Virus record (IMG/VR): IMGVR_UViG_2563366953_000002
Span: 1-49,559 of that record
DNA: 49,559 nt
Source of the DNA: a virus
Lineage: Duplodnaviria; Heunggongvirae; Uroviricota; Caudoviricetes
Reading direction: 5' to 3' (one strand)
In this document: positions 1-18,323 of the stretch, in pieces
Layout: the number at the start of each line of letters is the position of its first letter
Position numbering within the stretch: the stretch's first letter is position 1
Notes under the pieces: model-generated
Database searches by the model: none
Told to the model about the DNA's origin: nothing
Seen by the model: only the letters and a program-made list of their open reading frames with translations
Translations under genes and position numbers: made by a program

Positions 1-1236
1 CTACGATAACCGCGCATTCAACATAGCTACCTGTTCGTCGTTCATGTCATCAATCCACATACCGTAAATTTCATACACCATCTGCGCAGTTTCATGCCCC
101 ATCTGGCTGGCTATAAATGCCGGGTTCGCTCCTGCCGTCAACAGCCAGCAGGCAAAAGTATGTCGCGTATGGTACGGATTACGGCGGCGAATACCAGCAC
201 GTTTTACTGCTGCATTCCATCTCGCACCCAAACTGCTTACCGAGTAATAAGGTTTCTGTTTTCCGTTACACATCCTGGGCATGAAAACAAAATGCAGTTT
301 TTGCTTTTCGGTTCTGCCGTACTCCCGATGATAAAAAGTGATTTCGCTTTTGCGATGATGCCCGGTCAGTTTGTATTGCTCCTTCAGTGCTTCAAGAGCT
401 GGCTGTAGTAATGTTACCGTCCGGATCCCGGCATTTGTTTTTGGGGGACCGAACATATCAAGTATCGTCAGGTTTCTTCTGACATTCACAATTCCCTTCT
501 CGAAATCCACATCCTCCCACGCCAGAGCTGCCAGTTCCCCGTGACGAAGCCCGGAGTAAACGGCAAATTTCCACAAGTTTTGGCTCTGTCCTTTTTCACT
601 TTCCATTAATGCATTGAATTCTGTTTTAGATAACGGGTCAGGCTTTATTCTGTTTCGCTGTAATTTTTTTACTCCTTCAAATGGTTTGGTTGATATAAAT
701 CCCGACTGATACGCAAAACGTAACAGCGAACAGAGCAGGGCGATATAGTTATCAACTGTGCGCACGGTTCTTCCTTTTTTGTTGGATCTTGGATTATCCA
801 GGTAAAGCGTTTCTCCATGCAGCAGTTCATTCCGGTAGTTTAAGATATCGCTATAACGAATATATGATATCGGGGTACTTTCACAAATTATTATTCTGAG
901 TGTTTTTAATTGTGATTTCGTTTTCTTCATTGTGTTTGTTGTTAACTCTGTCTCTTTAATTTTTGTCCAGATATCACAAAGCTCCCCGAACGTTTTTATG
1001 ACTCTCGTTGTCACCATTTTTGCCCCAGTGCTGGACTGGGGAAAACGTCTTAAATACTCAAATTCACCGGAGTTTATTTCATGAACTATCAGCGCTCTTA
1101 AATTTCCGGCCTTTTTAATATTACTGTTTGTAATCTCCCAGCCTTTTAATGTTTCCCGACATCGTTTTCCTCGAAACATGAACCAGATGCGAATGTTTCT
1201 ACCTCTAATCTCGACACCTGTTGGTAATTTAGACAT
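1..1236 (-). CDS. int: phage tyrosine integrase
   Basis: 411-aa ORF with ATG at 1236 and stop at 1-3; C-terminal region carries tyrosine-recombinase-type motifs (..HTRHTFACWLL.., ..MGHETAQMVYEIYG..); terminal gene of the leftward early operon. Confidence 0.85.
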   Translation of the reverse strand: MSKLPTGVEIRGRNIRIWFMFRGKRCRETLKGWEITNSNIKKAGNLRALIVHEINSGEFEYLRRFPQSSTGAKMVTTRVIKTFGELCDIWTKIKETELTTNTMKKTKSQLKTLRIIICESTPISYIRYSDILNYRNELLHGETLYLDNPRSNKKGRTVRTVDNYIALLCSLLRFAYQSGFISTKPFEGVKKLQRNRIKPDPLSKTEFNALMESEKGQSQNLWKFAVYSGLRHGELAALAWEDVDFEKGIVNVRRNLTILDMFGPPKTNAGIRTVTLLQPALEALKEQYKLTGHHRKSEITFYHREYGRTEKQKLHFVFMPRMCNGKQKPYYSVSSLGARWNAAVKRAGIRRRNPYHTRHTFACWLLTAGANPAFIASQMGHETAQMVYEIYGMWIDDMNDEQVAMLNARLS

Positions 1237-1237
1237 A

Positions 1238-1453
1238 TCATGAGTCTTTGATAAACTGATTTATCTTTGGATAGTTGTACCAGATAATCCCTCGTTTGCT
1301 GTCTGGCTTACCTAAAGGAGATACTCGTTTGAAGTGAAAGCCTTCCACCCAGCAATTCTGACGGTATGCTTCAATTTGTCTGGCCCCCAGACCAGTACGA
1401 AGCATCAGACCGTATTCAACCATCCACTCTTCATTAAAAATCACTTGTGCCAT
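1238..1453 (-). CDS. putative excisionase-like protein
   Basis: Small ORF immediately upstream of int (stop 1 nt from the int start). The ORF track begins at a TTG; an in-frame ATG at 1453 is preceded by AGAGGTGA and gives a 71-aa product. Assignment by size and position only. Confidence 0.45.
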
Positions 1454-1552
1454 CGCATCACCTCTGGCGGGCGACAATATTAGACTGAAATTGACGCCCG
1501 ACGTTGATTATTAATAATCAGCTATGAAGTTTTAATTTGAATACAATGCAAC

Positions 1553-1741
1553 TCACGAGGACAGAATTTTCTCGCAATTAAAATTTATCAGTTTTACTTT
1601 CTGTTCTCTGGAAACGCCATCTTCTTTTTTCCCTGAGAGCATTTTTTCGCATTCTGATTTCGTTAATTTAGATTTTGAATATCTTGTCCAGTTAGTAGGT
1701 GTGTCACCTTCCTTTTCAATAGTGGCGGTAATTTTATACAT
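1553..1741 (-). CDS. hypothetical small protein
   Basis: ORF 1553-1813 trimmed to the internal ATG at 1741, which is preceded by GGAGGTG and abuts the stop of the upstream gene. Confidence 0.35.
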   Translation of the reverse strand: MYKITATIEKEGDTPTNWTRYSKSKLTKSECEKMLSGKKEDGVSREQKVKLINFNCEKILSS

Positions 1742-1943
1742 GAACACCTCCATTATTATTTCCAGTAGTTCGTTTATTCCATCTTGCAAGTGCTTCTTTT
1801 TCACTTCCACCATAACCGGTTCGGGATTCGCATCCGTTACACTTCGCTCGGTAATATCCTGAAATGGCTTTCACCGTTACTGATGGACAACCACAAAATG
1901 GACATGGTTTGACTTTTTCATACCGCATTGTCTTTTTTCTCAT
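1734..1943 (-). CDS. Lar-family restriction-alleviation-like protein
   Basis: 69-aa product with a KPCPFCG...C.GC...EA..RWNKR pattern that I recall as typical of Lar-family small zinc-ribbon proteins; sits in the int-proximal part of the early operon. Confidence 0.6.
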   Translation of the reverse strand: MRKKTMRYEKVKPCPFCGCPSVTVKAISGYYRAKCNGCESRTGYGGSEKEALARWNKRTTGNNNGGVHV

Positions 1944-1991
1944 AAAATAAAGTTTTGTTATGGCGGTGAGGCTACACCGCCATAGTAAATA

Positions 1992-3044
1992 TCAGGAGCC
2001 GATATATTCTGGTTTCATATCTGTCAGTGTCGTTTTATACGCCTCATATAATTCTCCCAGATGTGGTCGTGCAGCATTCAGCGTATTTTCCAGAGCAGTA
2101 AATTTTTGTTCTGCTTCCGGATCACCTGATGAAGGCAGGTCATTTATCATCTTCTCAATACGGGCAATAGCATTGAGACGGTGATGACGCTGAACCACTT
2201 TTCCTTTAAGTTCCGTATAGAGAGCGCCAAGTGTATTTTTATGCTCTTCCACTTCCTGCCGAAGTGCTGTTGTTTCTCCGGTGCTTTGTGCCTGCTCAAT
2301 ACGTTCACGGAAAGCACTGATCCAGTTTTCCCCGGCATCCTGCTCAATAATTGTTGTTTCACGTTCCGCACGGCAGGCGGATGTGTTTTTATGTTCCTGA
2401 ACCGGATTAATGATTTTTTCCTGTTGTTCGTCCAGTTCGTCCCTGGTGTACACTCCAAGAATCACTTCAGGGCAATAAAGGCGCGCCCAGCGTTTCAGTG
2501 CCAGATAGGCAAGCTGCTGACGAGGATCATCGGCCCATAACGTTGAGTTACGTGTTCTGGCCTGCGCCAGAAGTAACTCCAGTACGCGTGGTTTGCTCTC
2601 TCCGCGTAGTGTTGCCTGGACGCGAACTCCGATTCCGTTTTCATCGGCCAGCTTCCAGCCAGGTACACGATATTCTTTCCCTTTGTCGTTCTTCCTGATT
2701 TCAAATTTCCCGATAATTTTTTCCCACGGCCCGAACCAGTCATATTCAATACGCCCGGTTAGCGGCCCACGAGTACTGATTACGGCATTAACCAGTTGCG
2801 CTTCATATCCGAGCACACCATTCACAACGAAAGTTTTCTGAGCTACTGCATAAGGATTCATTTGCCACTGCATCGCCTGCATGGTGATGGCCATGCAGTC
2901 TGATGGATTTCCTCGGAGGTGTTCCGGTACAGTAGCCATGCCGGAAGCCATTACCTGAGAAAACGTCTGAATTGCAGCCAGAGACTGAGGGCTGAAAACC
3001 GCAACATTAGAGTTAATATTTTCTTGTTGAGTTAATTCGTTCAT
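1992..3044 (-). CDS. Bet/RecT-family single-strand annealing protein
   Basis: 350-aa ORF with ATG at 3044 after GAGGAAGG. The segment ..STLWADDPRQQLAYLALKRWARLYCPEVILGVYTRDE.. aligns by eye with my recollection of lambda Bet (..GPWQSHPKRMLRHKAMIQCARLAFGFAGIYDKDE..). Lies directly downstream of the large exonuclease gene. Confidence 0.7.
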   Translation of the reverse strand: MNELTQQENINSNVAVFSPQSLAAIQTFSQVMASGMATVPEHLRGNPSDCMAITMQAMQWQMNPYAVAQKTFVVNGVLGYEAQLVNAVISTRGPLTGRIEYDWFGPWEKIIGKFEIRKNDKGKEYRVPGWKLADENGIGVRVQATLRGESKPRVLELLLAQARTRNSTLWADDPRQQLAYLALKRWARLYCPEVILGVYTRDELDEQQEKIINPVQEHKNTSACRAERETTIIEQDAGENWISAFRERIEQAQSTGETTALRQEVEEHKNTLGALYTELKGKVVQRHHRLNAIARIEKMINDLPSSGDPEAEQKFTALENTLNAARPHLGELYEAYKTTLTDMKPEYIGS

Positions 3045-3055
3045 TGTGTCCTTCC

Positions 3056-6000
3056 TCAGATGCTCAGTGCTTCAAGACGACGAAGATCAAAGTCGTTTAA
3101 TTCGTCGGTATAACTTTCGGTAATCGGTGCTGGCCAGTTGTTTGTCTCCAGCGCTTCGTTTATCTGTCGTAGCGTCCGGCGATATTCCTGTCGACCAAGT
3201 TCCAGGAGTTCCTGCGAGGCTTCCACGACTGCCACCCAGTGATAGCCAGCATCTTTGTTGACGAAGATCCAGAAAAATTTGTCCAGGTTTGCCACATCGC
3301 AATACATTGCGGCGCTGAGGTGATAATCACGCTCAATAATTTCACGGTGCAGGCGATCTTTAAGTCGTTCCTGCCGCACATAACCGAGGCTGACTGACTT
3401 CACGTCAGCGCAAATGCTTTCGTATGGCAGCCGGATTTCGATATCAGGACGGACCCTAATTTCCAGCCCGGTTTCTTCATCAAACCCGAAATAGCTGATT
3501 TCAGATTTGCGATCCGGGTGGTTGAGTAGCCTTGCTGCATCGGTATTGTTTTGCAGTGCCGCGTGAATATTTTTTGCCTGTTCATACATATCCGGACTGA
3601 TAAACGTTTTCCCGGCGTTTTCTTCTTGCTGGCGTTTTTGCCAGTCCTCCAGTGTCACCAGGTCCGGGCGAATTTTCCGTGCGATTTCGGTTAATTGCTC
3701 TTTTGTGCCACTGATGTTGTAAGGCAAAGATTTAGCACGTTCTTTTTTTGCCAGTTCTGGGTCTACAGTTTCAATTTGATCCAGAAGCTGCTCCCGTGCT
3801 CCACTGGTTTTCAACAGAGGAGGGAGGCTTGCGTTGTATTCTTTAATACAGGCTTTCATTGCTGATGCTGTGTGTTTTTCCCCCTCAGGAATACGCCGAA
3901 ACTCCTCCGGAAGCGAACCGTAAAGGATGCCTGTTTCTTCGGCCCCAGCGCTTACCGACAGTGGCTGTATAAGAGTGCTGTTGTAGCTTTCGATCCACTC
4001 TTTCATCTGCTCTGGTGTCATCAGTGATGGCAGACTGGCATTATGTTTTTTAATGATGGTGATCAGTTCGTTAGAAGTAGTAACCACATATTCAGGAACC
4101 GGTACCGGAATGGCATATTCATCAGCGAATTTATCCGTTTCCAGAACATAGCTGTGAATGATCCGCCCACGCAGCAATGCATCACTTTCCTCGTTCGGGA
4201 TAGTTCCGGCAATGTGCCGCCCGTGGTAATACATCAGACTGATGCGGGCATCCTTCAGCATTGTGCTGCTTATTCCGTTGGCGGAGTGATAAACCTCGTT
4301 CGGGAGGTTTTCATAGCGACCAGGCTCGAAATATGACGGCCACATGATTTCAGTTGCTACATGAGCTGACGCTTCACCAGTTTCATCACTGCAATCGTGA
4401 TGCGGATGGTTGCCAGCGTTCTCCTTGTGCGGATGTTCAGCGCCTTCCATTTCCTCCGGATCTTTTTCCTGAGATTCATCCAGATTTTCTCCATCGAATG
4501 TTTCCTGGTATGTTGCGTCGCCCATCACCGCACCACAGTCAGGGCAGTTATCCCCGCCAGTCTGACCGCAGGCATTGCAGACTATTTCCGGTTCCCGTTG
4601 CACTACTGGCTCAGGTTGTTTCACATCCTGACTGGTTTTTTCCGTTTCTGGCTGGTTCTGGTTCACAGAATCGCGAGTCTGGATCCCTTTAACCCATTTC
4701 GGATCATTCGGGTCGCTAATTCCGTCAACAAATTCACCACGTGATGCAGCAAGCAATTTGTCGGCATCGACAGGATTTTTTGATGGAATGTTTTTCCGGG
4801 CTTCATGGAGCTCTTCCCGCAGTTCCTGATATTTCGCATCAACAGATTTTACCTGTGACTGAGCATCCAGCGGCTGCGTGTTCTGATGATGTTCAGTTGC
4901 ATCCGGTTCCACTGTTTCAGCCGTTGCCTGTTCATTTGCCATTGCGCAAGATGGTTGCGGTTTTTCTTCATCATCCTGTTTTTCTTCTGCTACACGCTGC
5001 GGCATTGGGGCAGAGGAGCGACCGCAGGCAATATCCACGATTTCCGGATCAGGGTTGGCATGATCGGTTTCAGTCAGCACCCTGCTCAGATATTCGGTGA
5101 CACGGTGGTGGGTAGCCTCGATACCAATTGGTGCTTCTTTTACGGACGCAACCACAATGGCGCGGGAATAATCCAGCCCGCCAGGCATGGTGATGAATTT
5201 GTCGCGGAAAACAGAAAAGGGCGGTTTATTTTCAGCGATAATTTCCTCAATGCGTTTAGCGTGTGCCGGATGAAGGTTATAGATGTCCACGTCCATTGAA
5301 CGGGCCAGTACGCCAGTGGCTACGTCGCGCGCCAGTGACGTAAGATCGTGGACGAAACCTTCGCCGCGATCGGTGAGGTTCCCGCCGCCAGCATTAGCAC
5401 CGGAAGCCGTGCGAGTGATGCGTGAAACACGATTCCCTTTTCGCCATTCTTTTGTCAGAAGACCGCGATCAATGTGTTCGGTATCCAGCCAGGCTGAAAT
5501 GAAATTCTTAAATTCATAGGGCTGATGTTTTTTCGTGATAGAGAAAACCGCCTTAATTGCATCAGTCAGGCGGAGCAGGGCGGCATTATCCAGAGTTGTC
5601 GGTTCTGCCATGCCGCGTATGGCCAACAGCAGATTCTGGACATAGCTGTTTTCCTGGTCCATCTCAAGAGCAGTAATGTGTTCGCGTTGTTCACGGGTGG
5701 CATGATGCAGGTATTTCCGATCCCCGGCCGCATACGTAAAAATGTGCAGAAGACGCTGTGTGAACCGCAAAGTGGCTACAGAGACTTCGCAATCCTGGCA
5801 ATCCCCGTGGGCGTCTGCCTGCGCGTTTTCTTCCTGGCCTCCCGCCAGTTCTTTGGTTTCCTGAGCATTATCCTGGTGGTTAACGTCGTCTGGCGCTGCA
5901 CCCGGTTTTAGTTCCCAGGTCATGGAGTCTTTGCTGAGTTGATAGCGTTCACTCCAGGTAAAATCGATCTCACCTTCAGGGGGCAGGTCATTAACGACAG

Positions 6001-6175
6001 GAAAATTAGTTGCAATAGCTTTAAAATAGTTGCTCAGTTTTTTACCTGACTTAACGATCAGGTAGTCCAGAGTGGCACAGGTTGATTCAAAATCGTCGCT
6101 TGCCCACAGGACGACGTCAGGCTCACCGGATGATTTTTTCGCTTTCCGTAAAAGGAAGAGTGGTTTTGTGCTCAT
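3056..6175 (-). CDS. RecE-like exonuclease (exodeoxyribonuclease VIII-like)
   Basis: 1039-aa ORF with ATG at 6175 after GAGG. Acidic low-complexity N-terminal half with a Cys cluster; the C-terminal domain has a PD-(D/E)xK-like arrangement (..[16 protein letters not shown]..). Paired with the Bet/RecT-like gene as in recE-recT modules. Confidence 0.65.
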
Positions 6176-12935: not shown

Positions 12936-13034
12936 TTAAATTTAGAACTGTAAATAAAATTTAATCCTTAACCGGAGGGGGTTCTGCACCCTCAGAACAT
13001 CAGGATGCCGCCCGAAAGGGCGGTGGAGATAATA

Positions 13035-13550
13035 ATGGAAATAACCAAAGAACGATTATTGGAAATAGCAAATCTTAGTGATAGGGTATTAAGTGATGAG
13101 AGAATTATTTCTCCTGATGCTTATGAATCAGTTACAAGTATAGAAATAATAACGATGGCCAGGATGCTTCTTGCTTGCTTCAAAAAAGAATATAAAAAAC
13201 AGGTAGATAGCAATGCTAATATATATGATATTTTGGACAGTTGGGGAGCTTGGGCTGCAGCTGGAAATAGTTCTGTCAATTGGCGGAAAGTAGCTGATAA
13301 ATATAAAAGTGTTGTACCTTATGGTAAAAAACTACGTCGTCAGTGCAGCGATGATGAGGGGCGTATGATTGATGAATGGATATTGAGGCTAGGGGAATAT
13401 AAAAATGAAGAATATGAGTTAATTATATCTCATTTTGTTATGGGAATATCTTTGCGTTCTATTTCCAAAGGAAAAGGTTGTTCTGAAGGCACGATAAGGA
13501 AGAATTTGCAAACAGCACTTGGATTTATAGAAGGGATAAGTTTGTTATGA
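13035..13550 (+). CDS. Q-family antiterminator paralog 1 (QuuD-like domain with N-terminal extension)
   Basis: ATG at 13035 after GGAGATAATA. The C-terminal 100 aa (..DSWGAWAAAGNSSVNW...RRQCSDDEGRMIDEWILRL...ELIISHFVMGISLRSISKGKGCSEGTIRKNLQTALGFIEGI) aligns with my recollection of DLP12 QuuD. AT-rich coding sequence. Confidence 0.6.
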   Translation: MEITKERLLEIANLSDRVLSDERIISPDAYESVTSIEIITMARMLLACFKKEYKKQVDSNANIYDILDSWGAWAAAGNSSVNWRKVADKYKSVVPYGKKLRRQCSDDEGRMIDEWILRLGEYKNEEYELIISHFVMGISLRSISKGKGCSEGTIRKNLQTALGFIEGISLL

Positions 13551-13558
13551 TAAAAACT

Positions 13559-13585
13559 AGGGAGGCGAGTCACCTCCCTGGTTTT
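13559..13585. terminator. bidirectional intrinsic terminator
   Basis: Hairpin AGGGAGGcgagtcaCCTCCCT with U-runs on both sides, between the convergent Q1 gene and the membrane-protein gene, whose stop codon lies inside the stem. Coordinates approximate. Confidence 0.45.
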
Positions 13586-14118
13586 ACATTTTGTTTTAGC
13601 AATATTCTAATGTTTTGTCTAATTATGATGAGGCAATGCAAAAGGAGAATTATTGTTAATATGGCTAGCCAGACACAAAAGAGACATGCGTATAGATTTG
13701 TTGATAGCCCAATAGTGAATTGTGATATTGCTGTCGTAAGTGATAACAGTATGGCAGTGTTAATAAATGATGATAAATTATCTAATGGTTTATACAAATC
13801 ACCATCATTAATTTTATCAATTGGCGTGCCAGTGGCGTTACTGTAAATAGCTCTATAATCTGGAGTTGAAAAAACTTTGTCACGTAAATTTACTATGACA
13901 AAAGTGTGTAGGCTCAATAAAAATGAACCGACGGAAATAAATCCTGAGAAAAGATATCCGCGTAAATTTCTATGATAAAAATCAAAAAAAACTTCGCTAA
14001 CTCTTGGAGTGTTTTTGTATAACAAAAACAGCCCCAGTAATACTAGGGCAGAAAATCCAAGCAGTATCACGTATTGATGTTTTAATTTTCTATTTATTAG
14101 CCATTCATATAAAGGCAT
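13570..14118 (-). CDS. polytopic membrane protein (four predicted TM helices), cargo-operon component
   Basis: 182-aa ORF with ATG at 14118. Four hydrophobic stretches (VILLGFSALVLLGLFLLY, GYLFSGFISVGSFLLSLHTFVIV, FINTAILLSLTTAISQFTIGL, LYACLFCVWLAILTIILLLHCLIII); very AT-rich; the start overlaps the upstream ORF by 14 nt, suggesting translational coupling. Confidence 0.55.
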   Translation of the reverse strand: MPLYEWLINRKLKHQYVILLGFSALVLLGLFLLYKNTPRVSEVFFDFYHRNLRGYLFSGFISVGSFLLSLHTFVIVNLRDKVFSTPDYRAIYSNATGTPIDKINDGDLYKPLDNLSSFINTAILLSLTTAISQFTIGLSTNLYACLFCVWLAILTIILLLHCLIIIRQNIRILLKQNVKPGR

Positions 14119-15035
14119 ATCTATTAGCCCCGTTTAGTATCTCATCTTTTATCATACCAAAAATAGGGTTTGTTGTATAATTGTCGCTTGTCAATCCATC
14201 TACTTTTTCGGCAATTGTATCAAAATCGTACGATTCGAAGAAAGTTGGACAATTCATAAAATCAATGACTTTTTCAAACCCAGCATGATCTACAGCTGTA
14301 ACTCTTGCTTTAACTATCCCCCCCCATTTGTTTATAGATATCATACATATGTTGAGATAGCGCTTGGATTTTCGTCTTATCCCCAGCATTAAAAGTCATG
14401 TCTATAGTGGTAGTGTTTGCAAATGGTTCAAGAGCTGTCATTGGCCCACCTTTAAAATCGATATAATTAAATTTAAATATAGTTTTTTTAATTTCTTTGA
14501 ATTGCCCTAAGATTTTTTTTATATCATCTTTATTCGTCATAATTTGAAATGATAGTCTGTCCTTATATTTTTTGTTTACAGCTATGATTTCTTTATGCTT
14601 TGGTTTATCCCCTAATGCTTTAACTTCTTTAGCATTTAGTTCCCTAATAAATTCATTGCTAATTGTCTGAAAGTGAGAGAACAGATTGTTCAGACTGCAT
14701 GAACCACGGTGGTACATGTAAAGTCCGGTAAGATTGGATTTTTTTATTAAGAAAAAATTGAAGTTGGCAAGTTTATCATTGCCCGCAAGATCTTCGATTT
14801 TCAGCTGAAACTTTCCACCCGTAAATTGTGATTTACAGTTCTTTTTTTGGTTTCGAAAGGTTACCACCAGACCATAATAATAATCATCATTTACGTCCGA
14901 TATCAGTATCCTACGAGTATAGTCGATACGGTTATGCTCCCTTGTTGATGCTCTAATAAAAGCTTCCATCACATCAGCTGTGTTAACGTTTGGGTTTGGG
15001 TTACTTATTGAAAAACCAATGCTTTTAACTCTCAT
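14105..15035 (-). pseudogene. frameshift-interrupted cargo gene: 241-aa ORF (14310-15035) continuing in a second frame (14105 to about 14330) across a G8 tract
   Basis: ATG at 15035 after AAGGTTG. The upstream frame ends ..YKQMGGDS at 14310; the second frame (..WGGIVKARVTAV..) runs to 14105. The two frames cross exactly at CCCCCCCC (14318-14325 on the plus strand); a tract of 7 would give one ORF of about 309 aa. The second frame has no SD of its own. No catalytic motifs recognised. Confidence 0.5.
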
Positions 15036-15367
15036 TTAACAACCTTGATTGTAACAAATTAGCTAACTTTGATAGTTTATTAAAAACTTTATGCGTACGC
15101 AAAAACTATCAACCTCAGGAGGTTAGTTGCTATTCTATTTGCGAGCATTGTCAGTGAAAGAGTTGGCATGGATATACGTGATAGGTAAAATCATTGCGGG
15201 TGCTTGAGGCTATCTGCCTCAGGCATGAACACCAAAAGGCAGATAGAGAAAAGCCCCAGTTAACATTACGCGTCCTGCAAGACGCTTAACATTAATCTGA
15301 GGCCGATTTCATGCTAGACACATGTAGGTTAGCCTCTTACGTGCCGAAAGGCAAGGAGAAGCAGGCT

Positions 15368-15523
15368 ATGAAGCAGCAAAAGGCGATGTTAATCGCCTTG
15401 ATCGTCATCTGTTTAACCGTCATAGTGACGGCACTGGTAACGAGGAAAGACCTCTGCGAGGTACGAATCCGAACCGGTCAGACGGAGGTCGCTGTCTTCG
15501 TAGACTACGAATCTAGAGAGTAA
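15368..15523 (+). CDS. hok: Hok/Gef-family type I toxin
   Basis: 51-aa product MKQQKAMLIALIVICLTVIVTALVTRKDLCEVRIRTGQTEVAVF... matches my recollection of Hok/Gef toxins nearly residue for residue. The ORF track reports the same frame from 15311 as a 70-aa ORF whose extra N-terminus is probably not translated. Structured leader upstream and hairpin plus U-run downstream. Confidence 0.8.
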   Translation: MKQQKAMLIALIVICLTVIVTALVTRKDLCEVRIRTGQTEVAVFVDYESRE

Positions 15524-15593
15524 GAGTGACCAGGCGAGGGATTTCTCCCTCGCCACCTCTGATGAGTCAGGCATCCTCAATGCACCCACACTT

Positions 15594-15620
15594 AACCCGC
15601 TTCGGCGGGTATATTTTATC
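15594..15620 (+). terminator. intrinsic terminator after hok
   Basis: CCCGCttcgGCGGG followed by TATATTTTA. Coordinates approximate. Confidence 0.5.
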
Positions 15621-15991
15621 TGTGAATATTTTTATAAAAATAATGCCCACGCACAGCATAAAACAAAAAGTATTACAGATAAAAAAGGAACGTAATGTGC
15701 AGATTTGTTGTTTTCCATATTTACTCACCTTAATATGATTAATCCTGATAGGGTTGTTATTTCAGCGGTTTTCAAATGAGATATTATGGTGATCTGGCAG
15801 ATTTGCATAACATTAAAATTTAATTTGTTTAACCGCTTTTAATAATAAGCGTTGTTTTTATCCCAGCAATTTGTTGTTTGGTTTTTATTCCATCAATGTG
15901 GGGGCTTTACACTGGAATCAGTTTATTTATACTTTATACGTCAGCCTGAACAACTGGCATCTGCTGCACTGCGCCATCGAGAGATTGAGAA

Positions 15992-16591
15992 ATGGCGCAT
16001 ATACAACTGGTCAAACAAACCTCTTCTGGTTTACTTCTCCCGGCGACGCCGGAGAGTTGCGATTTTCTGCATCAAATCAAAATAGGTGAGTGGATACACG
16101 CAGACTTTAAGCGTGTGCGTAACTACGCATTCCACAAGCGTTTTTTCAAACTCCTGCAACTGGGATTCGATTACTGGACTCCGGTCGGTGGGGCGATCAC
16201 GCCTCGCGAACGAGAACTGCTGTCTGGTTTCGTGGATTACCTGTGCGAATCAGTTGGTCGGGAACACACACCAGCCCTGAGTGATGCCGCAGAGCAATAT
16301 CTAAATACAGTTGCGACACGCAGAACCCGGGATACGGCATTGCTAAAGTCGTTTGAGGCTTTCCGCGAGTGGGTAACCATTCAGGCCGGATTTTACACCG
16401 AGCATCTTTATCCTGATGGTAGCCGTGGGCGTCGGGCGAAATCTATCGCGTTTGCGAATATGGACGAAACCGTGTTTCAGCAGGTTTATAAATCTGTACT
16501 GAATGTGCTGTGGAACTGGATTCTGTTCCGTAAATTTTCCTCTCCGGAACAAGTCGAAAATGTGGCCGCGCAGCTGCTGGAGTTTGCGTAA
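15992..16591 (+). CDS. nin-region protein (YbcN/DUF1367-like)
   Basis: 199-aa ORF immediately upstream of the Cys-rich gene and Q2; N-terminus MAHIQLVKQTSSGLLLPATPESCDFLHQIKIGEW resembles lambdoid nin-region proteins as I recall them. Confidence 0.45.
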   Translation: MAHIQLVKQTSSGLLLPATPESCDFLHQIKIGEWIHADFKRVRNYAFHKRFFKLLQLGFDYWTPVGGAITPRERELLSGFVDYLCESVGREHTPALSDAAEQYLNTVATRRTRDTALLKSFEAFREWVTIQAGFYTEHLYPDGSRGRRAKSIAFANMDETVFQQVYKSVLNVLWNWILFRKFSSPEQVENVAAQLLEFA

Positions 16592-16881
16592 TGGTGGACT
16601 TACGTAAAGCGACGCGGGGGCAGATGTGCACCGTCAGAATTCCTGGCTACTGCAATCACGATCCGGAAACGTCTGTGCTGGCGCATTACCGACTGGCGGG
16701 AACGTGCGGAACAGCGATAAAGCCACACGATATGCAGGCAGCGATTGCCTGTAGCTCGTGCCACGATTTAATCGACGGGCGGGTAAAAACCAGCGATTAC
16801 ACCAAAGAAGAATTACGCCTGATGCATGCAGAAGGTGTTTTTCGCACACAAGAAATCTGGAGAAAGGAGGGATATTTATGA
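16591..16881 (+). CDS. Cys-rich nin-region protein (YbcO/DUF1364-like)
   Basis: 96-aa ORF; ATG overlaps the upstream stop (TAATG); several Cys/His clusters (..CTVRIPGYCNHD.., ..CSSCHDL..); size and position match YbcO-like proteins upstream of Q. Confidence 0.45.
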   Translation: MVDLRKATRGQMCTVRIPGYCNHDPETSVLAHYRLAGTCGTAIKPHDMQAAIACSSCHDLIDGRVKTSDYTKEELRLMHAEGVFRTQEIWRKEGYL

Positions 16882-17414
16882 TTTACCCAACGAATACAGG
16901 AAAAAGCGGAGAACACCTTCGTCTCACCACGCTGGAAAGTGTCTGGATTCAGGGAAAACTACGTATGTGGGGGCGCTGGTCGTATATTGGCGGCGGCAGG
17001 TCAGGGAATATGTTTAACCAGTTGCTGGCATCCCAAAAAATGACAAAAACAGCCATCAATGAAGCCCTGCGCAGATTGAAAAAAGCGGGAATTGATAAAC
17101 CAGAGTTGGAAGCATTTTTGCGTGAGATGATCGAAGGAAAGCAAAAAAGCTGGTTAACTCACTGCACTGATGCAGAGGCACTAAAAATTGATAGTGTTAT
17201 AGGTGAAGTTCTGGCGGATCATCCAGGACTACTAAATGTCCTGAGTCAGCGTTATGTGGGGCGAGGGATGAGTAAGAGAAGGATGGCAGAGTTATTAAAC
17301 GAACAGTACCCAGAGTGGGCGTTGATTACATGCCGACGTCGTGTTGAGCAGTGGTTGCGTGTTGCTGAGTTCATTTTGTATTCACCTATGAGAGAAGCGT
17401 TCGATTATGCTTAA
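16878..17414 (+). CDS. Q-family antiterminator paralog 2
   Basis: ATG at 16878 overlaps the upstream stop, after AAGGAGG. Shares the WG.W...HCTDAEA...LSQRYVGRGMSKRRMAELLN...RRRVEQWLRVAEFI architecture with paralog 1 and QuuD; lies upstream of the tRNA and lysis genes. Confidence 0.55.
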   Translation: MIYPTNTGKSGEHLRLTTLESVWIQGKLRMWGRWSYIGGGRSGNMFNQLLASQKMTKTAINEALRRLKKAGIDKPELEAFLREMIEGKQKSWLTHCTDAEALKIDSVIGEVLADHPGLLNVLSQRYVGRGMSKRRMAELLNEQYPEWALITCRRRVEQWLRVAEFILYSPMREAFDYA

Positions 17415-17510
17415 AAAATCATTGCAAAATGAGCCACAAACTGCTTCAATTTTGGTACGCTTCGCAAAGCTGTATCGCGAGGCGAATCAAGCGCAATTGA
17501 ACTTTAATAG

Positions 17511-17540
17511 AACCCGCCATCGAGCGGGTTTTGTTGTTTC
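17511..17540 (+). terminator. intrinsic terminator downstream of Q2 (tR'-like candidate)
   Basis: CCCGCcatcgaGCGGG followed by TTTTGTTGTTT, about 100 nt after the Q2 stop. Coordinates approximate. Confidence 0.45.
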
Positions 17541-17778
17541 TGCGGTGTTATATAAGAAACGACATTTAATAATCTCCTTCAAAATAAATTTGTTTATATA
17601 TTGTCATGTATATTTTAAGTGAAAGTGAATTATTCACATAAAATAAAAACATATAAATAAATTTACATAACTTGACGCAAAGTGTTGTTGCGATTGGAAT
17701 ATTAAATCGTATCATCGAAAACGGTTCTGAGGGGGAACTCTTCTTTGCTCGGTGATATCGCTCCCCTGAAGAACCAAT

Positions 17779-17854
<76 letters not shown>

Positions 17855-17857
17855 TAT

Positions 17858-17932
<75 letters not shown>

Positions 17933-18295: not shown

Positions 18296-18323
18296 AACCG
18301 CCATATCTGGCGGTTTTTTTTAT
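18296..18323 (+). terminator. intrinsic terminator
   Basis: CCGCCAtatcTGGCGG followed by TTTTTTTT. Coordinates approximate. Confidence 0.55.

Follow-up and report, generated by a model that had tools for sequence, protein, structure and literature searches.

A Q21-family antiterminator gene with exchangeable cargo and a reduced late-promoter-like cassette in a Rac-type prophage

Results

Two Q genes and the genes between them

We analysed a viral sequence of 49,559 nucleotides (nt), IMGVR_UViG_2563366953_000002, here called the window; all positions below are window coordinates. Judged from its sequence, the window is a Rac-type lambdoid prophage. It contains two genes for proteins of the antiterminator Q type, which we call Q1 and Q2. 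Q1 is followed by two genes on the opposite strand, here called the cargo, and then by the remnant of a DNA cassette that lies directly upstream of the lysis genes in related phages. The features on which the analysis centres are the following.

13035-13550, plus strand: Q1, a long-form Q of the Q21 family (QuuD-type), 171 amino acids, with matches to PF06530, phrog_79 and the Q21 structure in the PDB
13035-13220, plus strand: N-terminal extension of Q1, approximately residues 1-62, phrog_3323
Residues 63-171 of Q1: Q domain, phrog_79
13553-13585, detected on either strand in the terminator scan: hairpin of an intrinsic, bidirectional terminator separating Q1 from the convergent cargo
13570-14118, minus strand: cargo gene 2, a membrane protein of 182 amino acids with four hydrophobic segments by hydropathy, RexB-like in architecture alone
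14105-15035, minus strand: cargo gene 1, a protein of predicted RexA/RdgC fold, 309 amino acids when intact, phrog_2802 (unknown function)
15090-15110, no strand assigned: cassette remnant TATGCGTACGCAAAAACTATC, with the core GCGTACGCAAAA(A) at 15093-15105
16878-17414, plus strand: Q2, a DUF1133 protein that is the resident Q of Rac-type phages and is remotely related to the Q21 family

Q1 matches the Pfam family PF06530 (Phage_antitermQ), which is the Q21/Q933W family (bioRxiv 10.1101/651190), with an expectation value (E) of 4e-31 and 107.8 bits at a cut-off of 26 (residues 72-178), and it is 35% identical to QuuD of DLP12. The best Pfam family of Q2 is PF06576 (DUF1133; E 1e-101, 338 bits), and its match to PF06530 is marginal (30 bits, cut-off 26). 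A phmmer search of the PDB connects both proteins to the Q of phage 21 (6P18/6JNX): Q1 with E 1.1e-4, residues 76-154 aligning to residues 19-98 of Q21, and Q2 with E 2.3e-4 and both ends collinear. In both, the alignment with Q21 takes in the WG.W helix at the N terminus and the sigma-R4-like helix-turn-helix at the C terminus. Two PHROG families, 79 and 943 ('anti-termination protein Q-like'), match both proteins, and Q2 also matches phrog_753. The DUF1133 protein carries the Q annotation in KU052037 and MN652886.

When Q1 and Q2 are compared with each other by BLASTP there is no significant similarity, the WG.W stretch alone being aligned (E 0.4), and hhalign of the two families gives a weak match (E 0.022, 86 collinear columns). 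According to these comparisons Q1 and Q2 are remote homologues that were acquired separately, with no duplication. An earlier inspection of the same DNA, made from its letters and open reading frames only (hereafter the sequence-only reading), had called the two proteins Q paralogs. Each protein is indeed remotely related to the Q of phage 21, but the pair itself has no significant match.

The other elements of that description mostly hold. Both reading frames are present, and an in-frame ATG at 13005 is open as well for Q1; the ATG at 13035 carries a GGAG Shine-Dalgarno sequence and is the annotated start in the near-identical copy of Q1 in E. coli E7-1N7. The convergent genes after Q1 are found at 13570-14118 and 14105-15035, both on the minus strand, and Q2 occupies the nin-Q-tRNA-lysis position, being followed by tRNA-Thr, tRNA-Gly, a holin-sized reading frame and a lysozyme gene. 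The N-terminal extension of Q1, given as 75 amino acids, needs correcting to about 62 when measured against the short-form Q of mEp460-like phages (113 amino acids). An AlphaFold2 model of Q1 from a 49-sequence alignment reached a predicted local distance difference test score (pLDDT) of 49.5, which is too poor for comparing the Q21 fold or the extension.

A conserved cassette beyond the cargo in short-form relatives

In phages mEp460_4F5 and vB_EcoS-569R4 the 113-residue Q is the sole Q. It is followed by the two convergent genes of the window at 75% nucleotide identity, a methylase gene and the lysis genes. A scan of genome contigs for the cargo found five more Enterobacterales loci (Xenorhabdus, Yersinia, Citrobacter, Enterobacter and an Enterobacteriaceae bacterium) where RexA-fold gene, membrane-protein gene and convergent Q have stayed together, with protein identity down to 42%.

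In all of these phages and loci a conserved cassette stands just beyond the cargo, aAAAa.acT-AACGCGTACGCAAAAA-nTATnGTAnnnTGtTAAGAGTGGtt.CT..G.cAC....CTTAA, with a terminator after it. When viral contigs were scanned for exact matches to the 16-mer of this cassette, at least 120 loci were returned. In 93 of them a Q gene of the Q1 type is found 631-3041 base pairs (bp) upstream on the same strand, never nearer. The interval between Q and cassette, the slot, measures 0.6-3 kb and is variable in content and counter-oriented; across these loci at least 40 protein families occur in it, nearly all on the opposite strand. Among the 53 loci with enough sequence, 48 have identifiable lysis genes after the cassette, on its strand and at a median distance of 862 bp; in none of the 53 do lysis genes lie ahead of it.

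Several of the proteins in the slot belong to known families: KwaB of Kiwa (E 1e-125, with a KwaA-like partner), NA37, a C5 DNA methylase, HEPN_MAE_28990, GmrSD_N, RelA_SpoT/PDC-S33 (toxSAS-like), PDC-S42 and an OLD-like ATPase. Kiwa occupies the slot in nine viral contigs.

Other occupants of the slot (loci L011-L130) include further pairs of a soluble protein of 270-300 amino acids and a small protein with four transmembrane (TM) segments (clusters 7+6 and 27+26), and many families with no Pfam or PADLOC match, for example proteins of 404, 427, 343 and 249 amino acids. These pairs and unmatched families are candidates for new defence genes.

The 91 unique cassettes have a common anatomy. A sigma-70 -10 signature, TAnnnT with the T, the A and the last T near-invariant, overlaps a TATnGT, and after the -10 comes an invariant TAAGAGTGG. 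This contains AAGAGT, with A at position 2 and T at position 6 as expected of a -10-like pause element. Of the 91 cassettes, 57 have a terminator-like hairpin, whose end lies about 80 nt from where the 16-mer begins. The Q protein of phage 21 binds a Q-binding element (QBE) between the -35 and -10 and requires a -10-like pause element (PMC6606751). Since the succession of core, -10, pause-like element and terminator matches that of Q-dependent late promoters as described there, we infer that the cassette may represent the pR'/QBE-tR' of this Q clade. In the QuuD-type phages, a counter-oriented slot with swappable cargo would then be maintained between the Q gene and its putative loading site. 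Relatives of the cassette are found in 3730 of 5426 complete E. coli genomes (~69%), with no annotated feature over them among the matches listed.

The same layout is seen in the DLP12 prophage of E. coli K-12, where the order is quuD, convergent nmpC, cassette, essD. The right half of the DLP12 cassette (at about 5400-5510 of locus L131, upstream of essD) is near-identical, TGTTAAGAGTGGTTACTTCG.CAC...terminator. The core differs: it is ACGTACGT, a different palindrome, against GCGTACGC, and is also read as TACGTACGTAAAAAA in the DLP12 cassette. The recognition helix differs too, GYIGKRLQ in QuuD against GTIRK.LQ in Q1-type proteins. Recognition helix and core thus differ together, a possible case of covariation between protein and site seen in a single instance.

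The cassette at Q1 is reduced to its core

The window has a single match to the 16-mer, TATGCGTACGCAAAAA at 15090-15105 with two mismatches. It lies about 1.5 kb downstream of Q1, past the cargo, and is followed by hok, not by late genes. Aligned to nine related loci and to 102 unique cassettes, the remnant diverges after ...CTATC, and the right half of the cassette (-10, TAAGAGTGG, hairpin and terminator) is found nowhere in the window. Q21-type late control has a cognate pR' and late genes after the Q gene, and neither is present at Q1. The same reduction is found in all long-form loci: the 12-nt core GCGTACGCAAAA lies 55-85 nt beyond the start of the cargo, whichever cargo is present, and the right half is absent.

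Between Q1 and the cargo stands the hairpin at 13553-13585, with folding energies of -20.1 and -19.4 kcal/mol on the two strands (z scores -4.1 and -5.5) and a T-run on each side. According to these data Q1 is probably unable to start late transcription at its own locus. Because the cassette is reduced to its core and a terminator separates Q1 from the cargo, no Q1-dependent antisense transcript is expected through the cargo genes.

The sequence-only reading had noted that any late transcript from Q1 would be antisense to the cargo operon. Spelled out, this model makes Q1 an active late antiterminator with pR'/qut right after its stop codon, whose late transcript would silence the cargo by antisense and run on into hok, nin and Q2. 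A site resembling an extended -10 promoter, TTTATA-16-TATGAT with a TG, does exist at 13524-13551, where it overlaps the Q1 stop codon and has the terminator hairpin immediately after it. However, this junction is unconserved in the short-form relatives, in which the position of the hairpin alone is kept, and it has no core motif. A transcript from about 13558 would start within the hairpin. What is conserved, at more than 100 loci, is the element on the far side of the cargo, immediately ahead of the lysis genes. We consider an antisense late transcript from Q1 very improbable, the parental pR'-like cassette being located beyond the cargo, with a bidirectional terminator in between and the core alone kept in the window.

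The search for a pR' directly after Q1 gave one candidate, TGtTATGAT plus hairpin, which was rejected as not conserved. A qut-like element common to the DNA downstream of the two Q genes was also sought. No shared sequence was found there: between the DNA after Q1, or beyond the cargo, and the DNA after Q2 only chance 7-11-mers are shared. Rfam, at gathering and E-value thresholds, detects RalA, sok and the tRNAs alone, with no IsrK-like or other RNA after either Q.

The minus strand of the core has a -35-like hexamer, TTGCGT, and in the window this lies 17 nt upstream of TAAACT. For four of the five cargo types TTGCGT is found 17-18 nt upstream of a -10-like hexamer, and by this spacing the core may double as the -35 of a cargo promoter. 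The core region of the window may thus be a candidate promoter for the cargo, on the minus strand. A plus-strand promoter beside the core was also sought. There are -10-like hexamers in loci L133 and L137 and none in the window or in L141; this candidate was dropped, there being no consistent element.

Long-form Q proteins recur and are under purifying selection

Comparison by blastn with phage Rac (MN652886) and Rac-SA53 shows that homology to the window ends at 13034, one base ahead of the Q1 start codon, and returns at 15157, at the hok locus. From this interruption we take 13035-15156 to be foreign to the Rac backbone; other Rac phages hold different genes there. The G+C content is 31-38% across 13000-15200 and about 50% in the flanks, in keeping with the AT-richness noted by the sequence-only reading.

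The block is not confined to the window. In the Rac prophage of E. coli E7-1N7 it is found at 97.8% identity, likewise together with a DUF1133 Q. A protein search gave 24 clusters of Q proteins of 170-185 amino acids; they are from E. coli and Salmonella and share 66-97% identity with Q1 over the full length. DNA coding for the extension is present in 60 of the 5426 complete E. coli genomes. The context is constant: the early-right operon of Rac/Qin-type prophages, with a YdaS/YdaT immunity region, replication genes and DUF977 or DUF1627, is followed by the long-form Q, a convergent two-gene cargo, hok, the nin region and a second Q. The second Q belongs to one of three families, DUF1133, the lambda type (PF03589) or short-form PF06530. 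The cargo varies, and four kinds were seen: a RexA-fold protein with a 4-TM protein, a DUF6731 protein with a protein of 159 amino acids, an NA37 protein with a protein of 410 amino acids, and a protein of 273 with one of 161 amino acids. The cargo has thus been swapped at least four times while Q, core and hok kept their places.

These findings modify the idea of a mosaic junction at which a Q-plus-cargo block was inserted. The block is indeed foreign and AT-rich, with edges at 13034 and 15157, but it is no one-off junction, as the arrangement recurs. Related prophages do carry two Q genes, and the composition is not uniform.

The long-form Q is under purifying selection. Pairwise ratios of non-synonymous to synonymous substitution rates (dN/dS) among four long-form genes are 0.18-0.40 overall, and in the most diverged pairs they are 0.12-0.33 for the Q domain and 0.17-0.38 for the extension. 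All residues that are invariant across short and long forms are retained in Q1. Because dN/dS is low and the invariant residues are kept, Q1 is a maintained protein and not debris.

This bears on the notion that Q1 is a functionless leftover of a module that was captured once, lost its pR' and is now decaying. The cognate cassette is truncated, a cargo gene is frameshifted, and in Rac phages without Q1 the resident Q2 suffices, all of which would fit such a decay. Yet the long-form Q is intact in the 24 protein clusters, dN/dS is 0.12-0.40 in extension and Q domain, the family-invariant residues are in place, and the cargo has been exchanged around an unmoving Q, core and hok. We regard a mere leftover as improbable.

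In one prophage (L141 6001-12522, L142 5230-11751) the two forms coexist: a long-form Q in the early region, accompanied by cargo and hok, and a PF06530 Q of the short form; the latter follows DUF968-RusA, and counter-oriented genes come next. In the E7-1N7 prophage (L001 11718-15866), which is the nearest relative of the window, a hypothetical protein of 179 amino acids, HsdM, HsdS and an IS4 fragment lie between hok and DUF1367, and these extra genes point to a second variable, defence-bearing spot in the early-right region.

The cargo pair

Cargo gene 1 is broken in the window into reading frames of 241 and 94 amino acids by a +1 frameshift at a run of eight G (14318-14325). The E7-1N7 copy, which is 99.6% identical, has seven G and an intact reading frame of 309 amino acids. 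The run of eight could mean that the gene is a pseudogene or that the tract is prone to slippage, or it could be a sequencing error in a homopolymer; given the frameshift, the cargo is probably inactive in the window. The two cargo genes overlap by 14 nt (14105-14118), and in other genera and in viral contigs the 4-TM gene is always immediately downstream of the RexA-fold gene.

Neither protein has a family in Pfam (E<=0.01), PADLOC or NCBIfam, and PHROGs has nothing for the membrane partner. An AlphaFold2 model of the 309-residue protein, built from 26 homologues, has a pLDDT of 76. Its best Foldseek matches in the PDB are RexA (E 4.8e-5) and RdgC (E 1.5e-4), and in BFVD it matches uncharacterised phage proteins and one RdgC-like protein. 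Two fold-search methods agree on the nearest structures, so that the model has the predicted two-domain fold of RexA and RdgC. By sequence, hhalign of the 26-sequence family against lambda RexA is not significant (E 0.29), and the membrane partner has no similarity to RexB (by BLASTP) or to the KwaA-like protein. We call the pair Rex-like by fold and architecture, since gene order, sizes and the membrane partner match rexA-rexB and the sequence families do not. The PADLOC models KwaA and KwaB (DUF4868) do not match the window proteins at E<=1; the KwaB found elsewhere in the slot reaches E 1e-125.

Might the cargo have nothing to do with defence? It could be an RdgC-like modulator of DNA or recombination, or a membrane function of lysogenic conversion. 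The predicted fold is common to RdgC and to kinetochore DNA-binding proteins, and PADLOC gives no matches. However, the gene is always paired and overlapping with a gene for a small polytopic membrane protein, as in rexA-rexB, and the slot holds Kiwa, GmrSD-like, HEPN, toxSAS-like and OLD-like genes in other phages. A role outside defence is therefore possible in our view, and not likely.

The 75% nucleotide allele of the pair is present in 218 of the 5426 complete E. coli genomes (~4%), including O104:H4 2011C-3493 and an ST131 strain, with NC_018658.1 2163930-2165389 as an example; among the matches listed, both genes are annotated as hypothetical throughout. The allele of the window itself is found in one of the 5426.

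Q2 and the late region

The genes around Q2 follow the Rac-type plan.

15992-16591, plus strand: DUF1367 (IrsA/YbcN-like), Pfam E 8e-96, resident nin-like gene
16591-16881, plus strand: YbcO, Pfam E 7e-44, resident nin-like gene
17424-17452, plus strand: predicted candidate late promoter TTGCAA-N17-TTCAAT
17511-17540, plus strand: terminator hairpin after Q2, -17.4 kcal/mol, z -3.4, ending a short leader
17779-17932, plus strand: tRNA-Thr(TGT) and tRNA-Gly(TCC), by ARAGORN and Rfam, between Q2 and the lysis genes

A promoter-like site and a terminator within about 100 nt after Q2 are a layout common to four Rac-type phages, in which a QBE and a pause element are not definable. This layout fits Q2 being the late switch, as far as can be read from the DNA. 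There is also a promoter-like site TTGCGA-16-TATCAT at 17688-17715 (plus strand), just ahead of the tRNA genes, and a strong terminator at 18296-18315 (plus strand) after the tRNAs and before the holin-sized reading frame. These two would make an alternative Q2-dependent promoter-terminator pair, with the tRNAs in the leader.

Prophage backbone and edges of the block

The gene order replication genes-hok-DUF1367-YbcO-DUF1133 Q is the same in phage Rac MN652886 and Rac-SA53. A reading frame of 1039 amino acids at 3056-6175 occupies the position of recE in the near-identical E7-1N7 prophage, and the RalA small RNA is found at 1557-1735 on the plus strand (Rfam RF02694, 191 bits). RalA is the antitoxin of the Rac RalR/RalA pair and confirms the Rac-type backbone. 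The edges of the foreign block carry the following features.

12959-13034, plus strand: leader upstream of Q1, with two hairpins and the GGAG Shine-Dalgarno sequence, left edge of the block
15157-15610, plus strand: hok/mok/sok type I toxin-antitoxin locus, right edge of the block
15163-15191, plus strand: hok-locus promoter predicted by the promoter scan
15371-15523, plus strand: hok coding sequence, PF01848, E 4e-23
15595-15610, plus strand: hok-locus terminator from the terminator scan

The second hairpin of the leader, GCCGCCC-GAAA-GGGCGGU, abuts the Shine-Dalgarno sequence of Q1, and the leader as a whole folds with -24.6 kcal/mol (z -2.5). The two hairpins are noted in the stretch 12975-13034. 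The leader is kept in all long-form Q loci. Rac phages with different genes at this place have it too, so that it belongs to the Rac/Qin backbone. The sok element scores 121 bits with Rfam RF01794 (cut-off 59), which together with PF01848 identifies the locus as hok/sok.

Discussion

Possible working of the Q1 module

The explanation that we favour, with moderate confidence, is that Q2 serves as the late switch, that Q1 and the cargo form a separately inherited module, that Q1 is here without its loading site, that the cargo is Rex-like, and that Q1 acts at the retained core. The module derives from the late-control module of QuuD-type phages, which consists of Q gene, slot, cassette and lysis genes. 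In Rac/Qin-type prophages it sits in the early-right operon upstream of hok, having gained a conserved N-terminal domain and lost the half of the cassette with promoter, pause element and terminator. Q1 could then presumably not load RNA polymerase here, and the late genes would depend on Q2. The cargo would be a Rex-like, membrane-acting exclusion system with its own promoter, the -35 of which lies inside the core. Upon derepression of the early-right operon, Q1 would be made and would bind the retained core. Its likeliest effect would be to modulate or shut off the cargo promoter, for example that of an abortive-infection system during the lytic growth of the phage itself. Alternatively, Q1 might act in trans on cognate cassettes of co-resident prophages.

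Control of the cargo promoter is the most economical role for Q1. The trans role is a serious alternative, which would better explain the conserved residues outside the DNA-binding helices. In its full form it states that Q1 loads at the cognate pR' cassettes of QuuD-type phages that are co-resident or superinfecting, where it would either cross-activate their late genes on induction or, by means of its N-terminal extension, be a dominant-negative Q that keeps these phages out. Several facts agree with this: the recognition helix of Q1, GTIRK.LQ, is the same as that of short-form Q proteins beside the AACGCGTACGCAAAAA cassette, cassette relatives are present in 3730 of the 5426 E. coli genomes, long and short forms occur together in one prophage, and the residues outside the helix-turn-helix are retained. 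On the other hand, the promoter scan predicted no promoter upstream of Q1 for expression in the lysogen, and action in trans gives no reason for the presence of the core in cis beside each cargo. We give it a limited chance of being the main role of Q1.

A number of points weigh against the explanation by control at the retained core. The -10, pause element and QBE of the cassette were read purely from conservation patterns, and the core holds an 8-bp palindrome, whereas the known QBE of Q21 is a direct repeat. Retention of the invariant residues outside the helix-turn-helix suggests that Q1 still engages RNA polymerase somewhere, which DNA binding alone does not explain. The core might be conserved partly because it serves the cargo promoter as a -35, and one cargo type (L137) has no good -10 at the expected spacing. 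Finally, the RexA assignment comes from a model with a pLDDT of 76, and hhalign, the Pfam RexA and RexB families and PADLOC give it no support from sequence.

Extending the explanation, the long-form Q might be no late-gene antiterminator but a repurposed switch for a swappable defence cassette, produced from the early-right operon upon induction and conferring self-immunity through the -35 core, or else a dominant-negative Q against late transcription of superinfecting QuuD-type phages, and the slot might be a defence hotspot whose promoter shares the binding site of the late switch. We offer this extension tentatively and think it rather unlikely as a whole.

Significance

Q proteins, the quuD-nmpC-essD order of DLP12, hok/sok, RexAB and morons in the interval between Q and lysis genes, such as stx, are already known. 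Our literature searches did not find the cassette as a defined element, the general counter-oriented slot, a promoter-less long-form Q or the Rex-like family. If our reading is correct, a ubiquitous pR'-like cassette has been identified, with relatives in ~69% of complete E. coli genomes, unannotated among the matches listed, and the Q gene of QuuD-type phages is parted from its loading site by a swappable counter-oriented cargo slot. As the slot holds Kiwa and many known or candidate defence genes, it would be a practical place to seek new defence systems. The cargo would represent a new Rex-like two-gene sequence family, present in ~4% of complete E. coli genomes, and a long-form Q parted from its promoter would be a tractable case for studying roles of the Q fold beyond late-gene antitermination. 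For annotation, an 'antiterminator Q family protein' at the position of Q1 should not be taken as the late switch of the prophage.

Comparison with known systems

In phage 21, pR' lies right after the Q gene, with a direct-repeat QBE (TGAGCA), a pause element and tR'. After Q1, in contrast, come a terminator, counter-oriented cargo and only a 12-nt core that has a palindrome in it, and Q1 also has the N-terminal extension of 62 amino acids.

The qsr' region of DLP12 (quuD, nmpC, essD-rrrD-rzpD) resembles the short-form parents in having a QuuD-type Q, a convergent moron (nmpC), the cassette and then lysis genes. It differs from the window in that QuuD is short-form and the sole Q, the cassette is complete and the cargo is a porin gene. 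The late region of Stx phages (Q933W, pR', tR', tRNAs, stx, lysis) is like the window in carrying cargo in the Q-to-lysis interval and tRNA genes after Q. However, the cargo of Stx phages is downstream of pR', co-oriented and Q-dependent, whereas here it is upstream of the pR'-like cassette and counter-oriented.

The cargo resembles lambda RexA/RexB in that a gene of about 300 codons with the predicted RexA/RdgC fold lies upstream of, and overlaps, a gene for a small four-helix membrane protein, and both pairs are prophage-borne and oriented against lytic operons. It differs from Rex in having no sequence similarity, in not being beside cI, in the size of the partner (182 against 144 amino acids) and in the frameshift of the window copy. 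Kiwa likewise combines a membrane protein with a soluble protein of about 300 amino acids, and it is found in the same slot between Q and cassette in the nine viral contigs mentioned above; in Kiwa, however, the membrane gene comes first, and the KwaA and KwaB models miss the window proteins.

AntQ of Gifsy-1 (PMC4825925) differs from Q1 in being the resident Q upstream of the lysis genes. Like Q1, it is a Q-like protein of a prophage. When AntQ is expressed, its effects reach beyond one late operon, and it provides a precedent for non-canonical roles of Q proteins.

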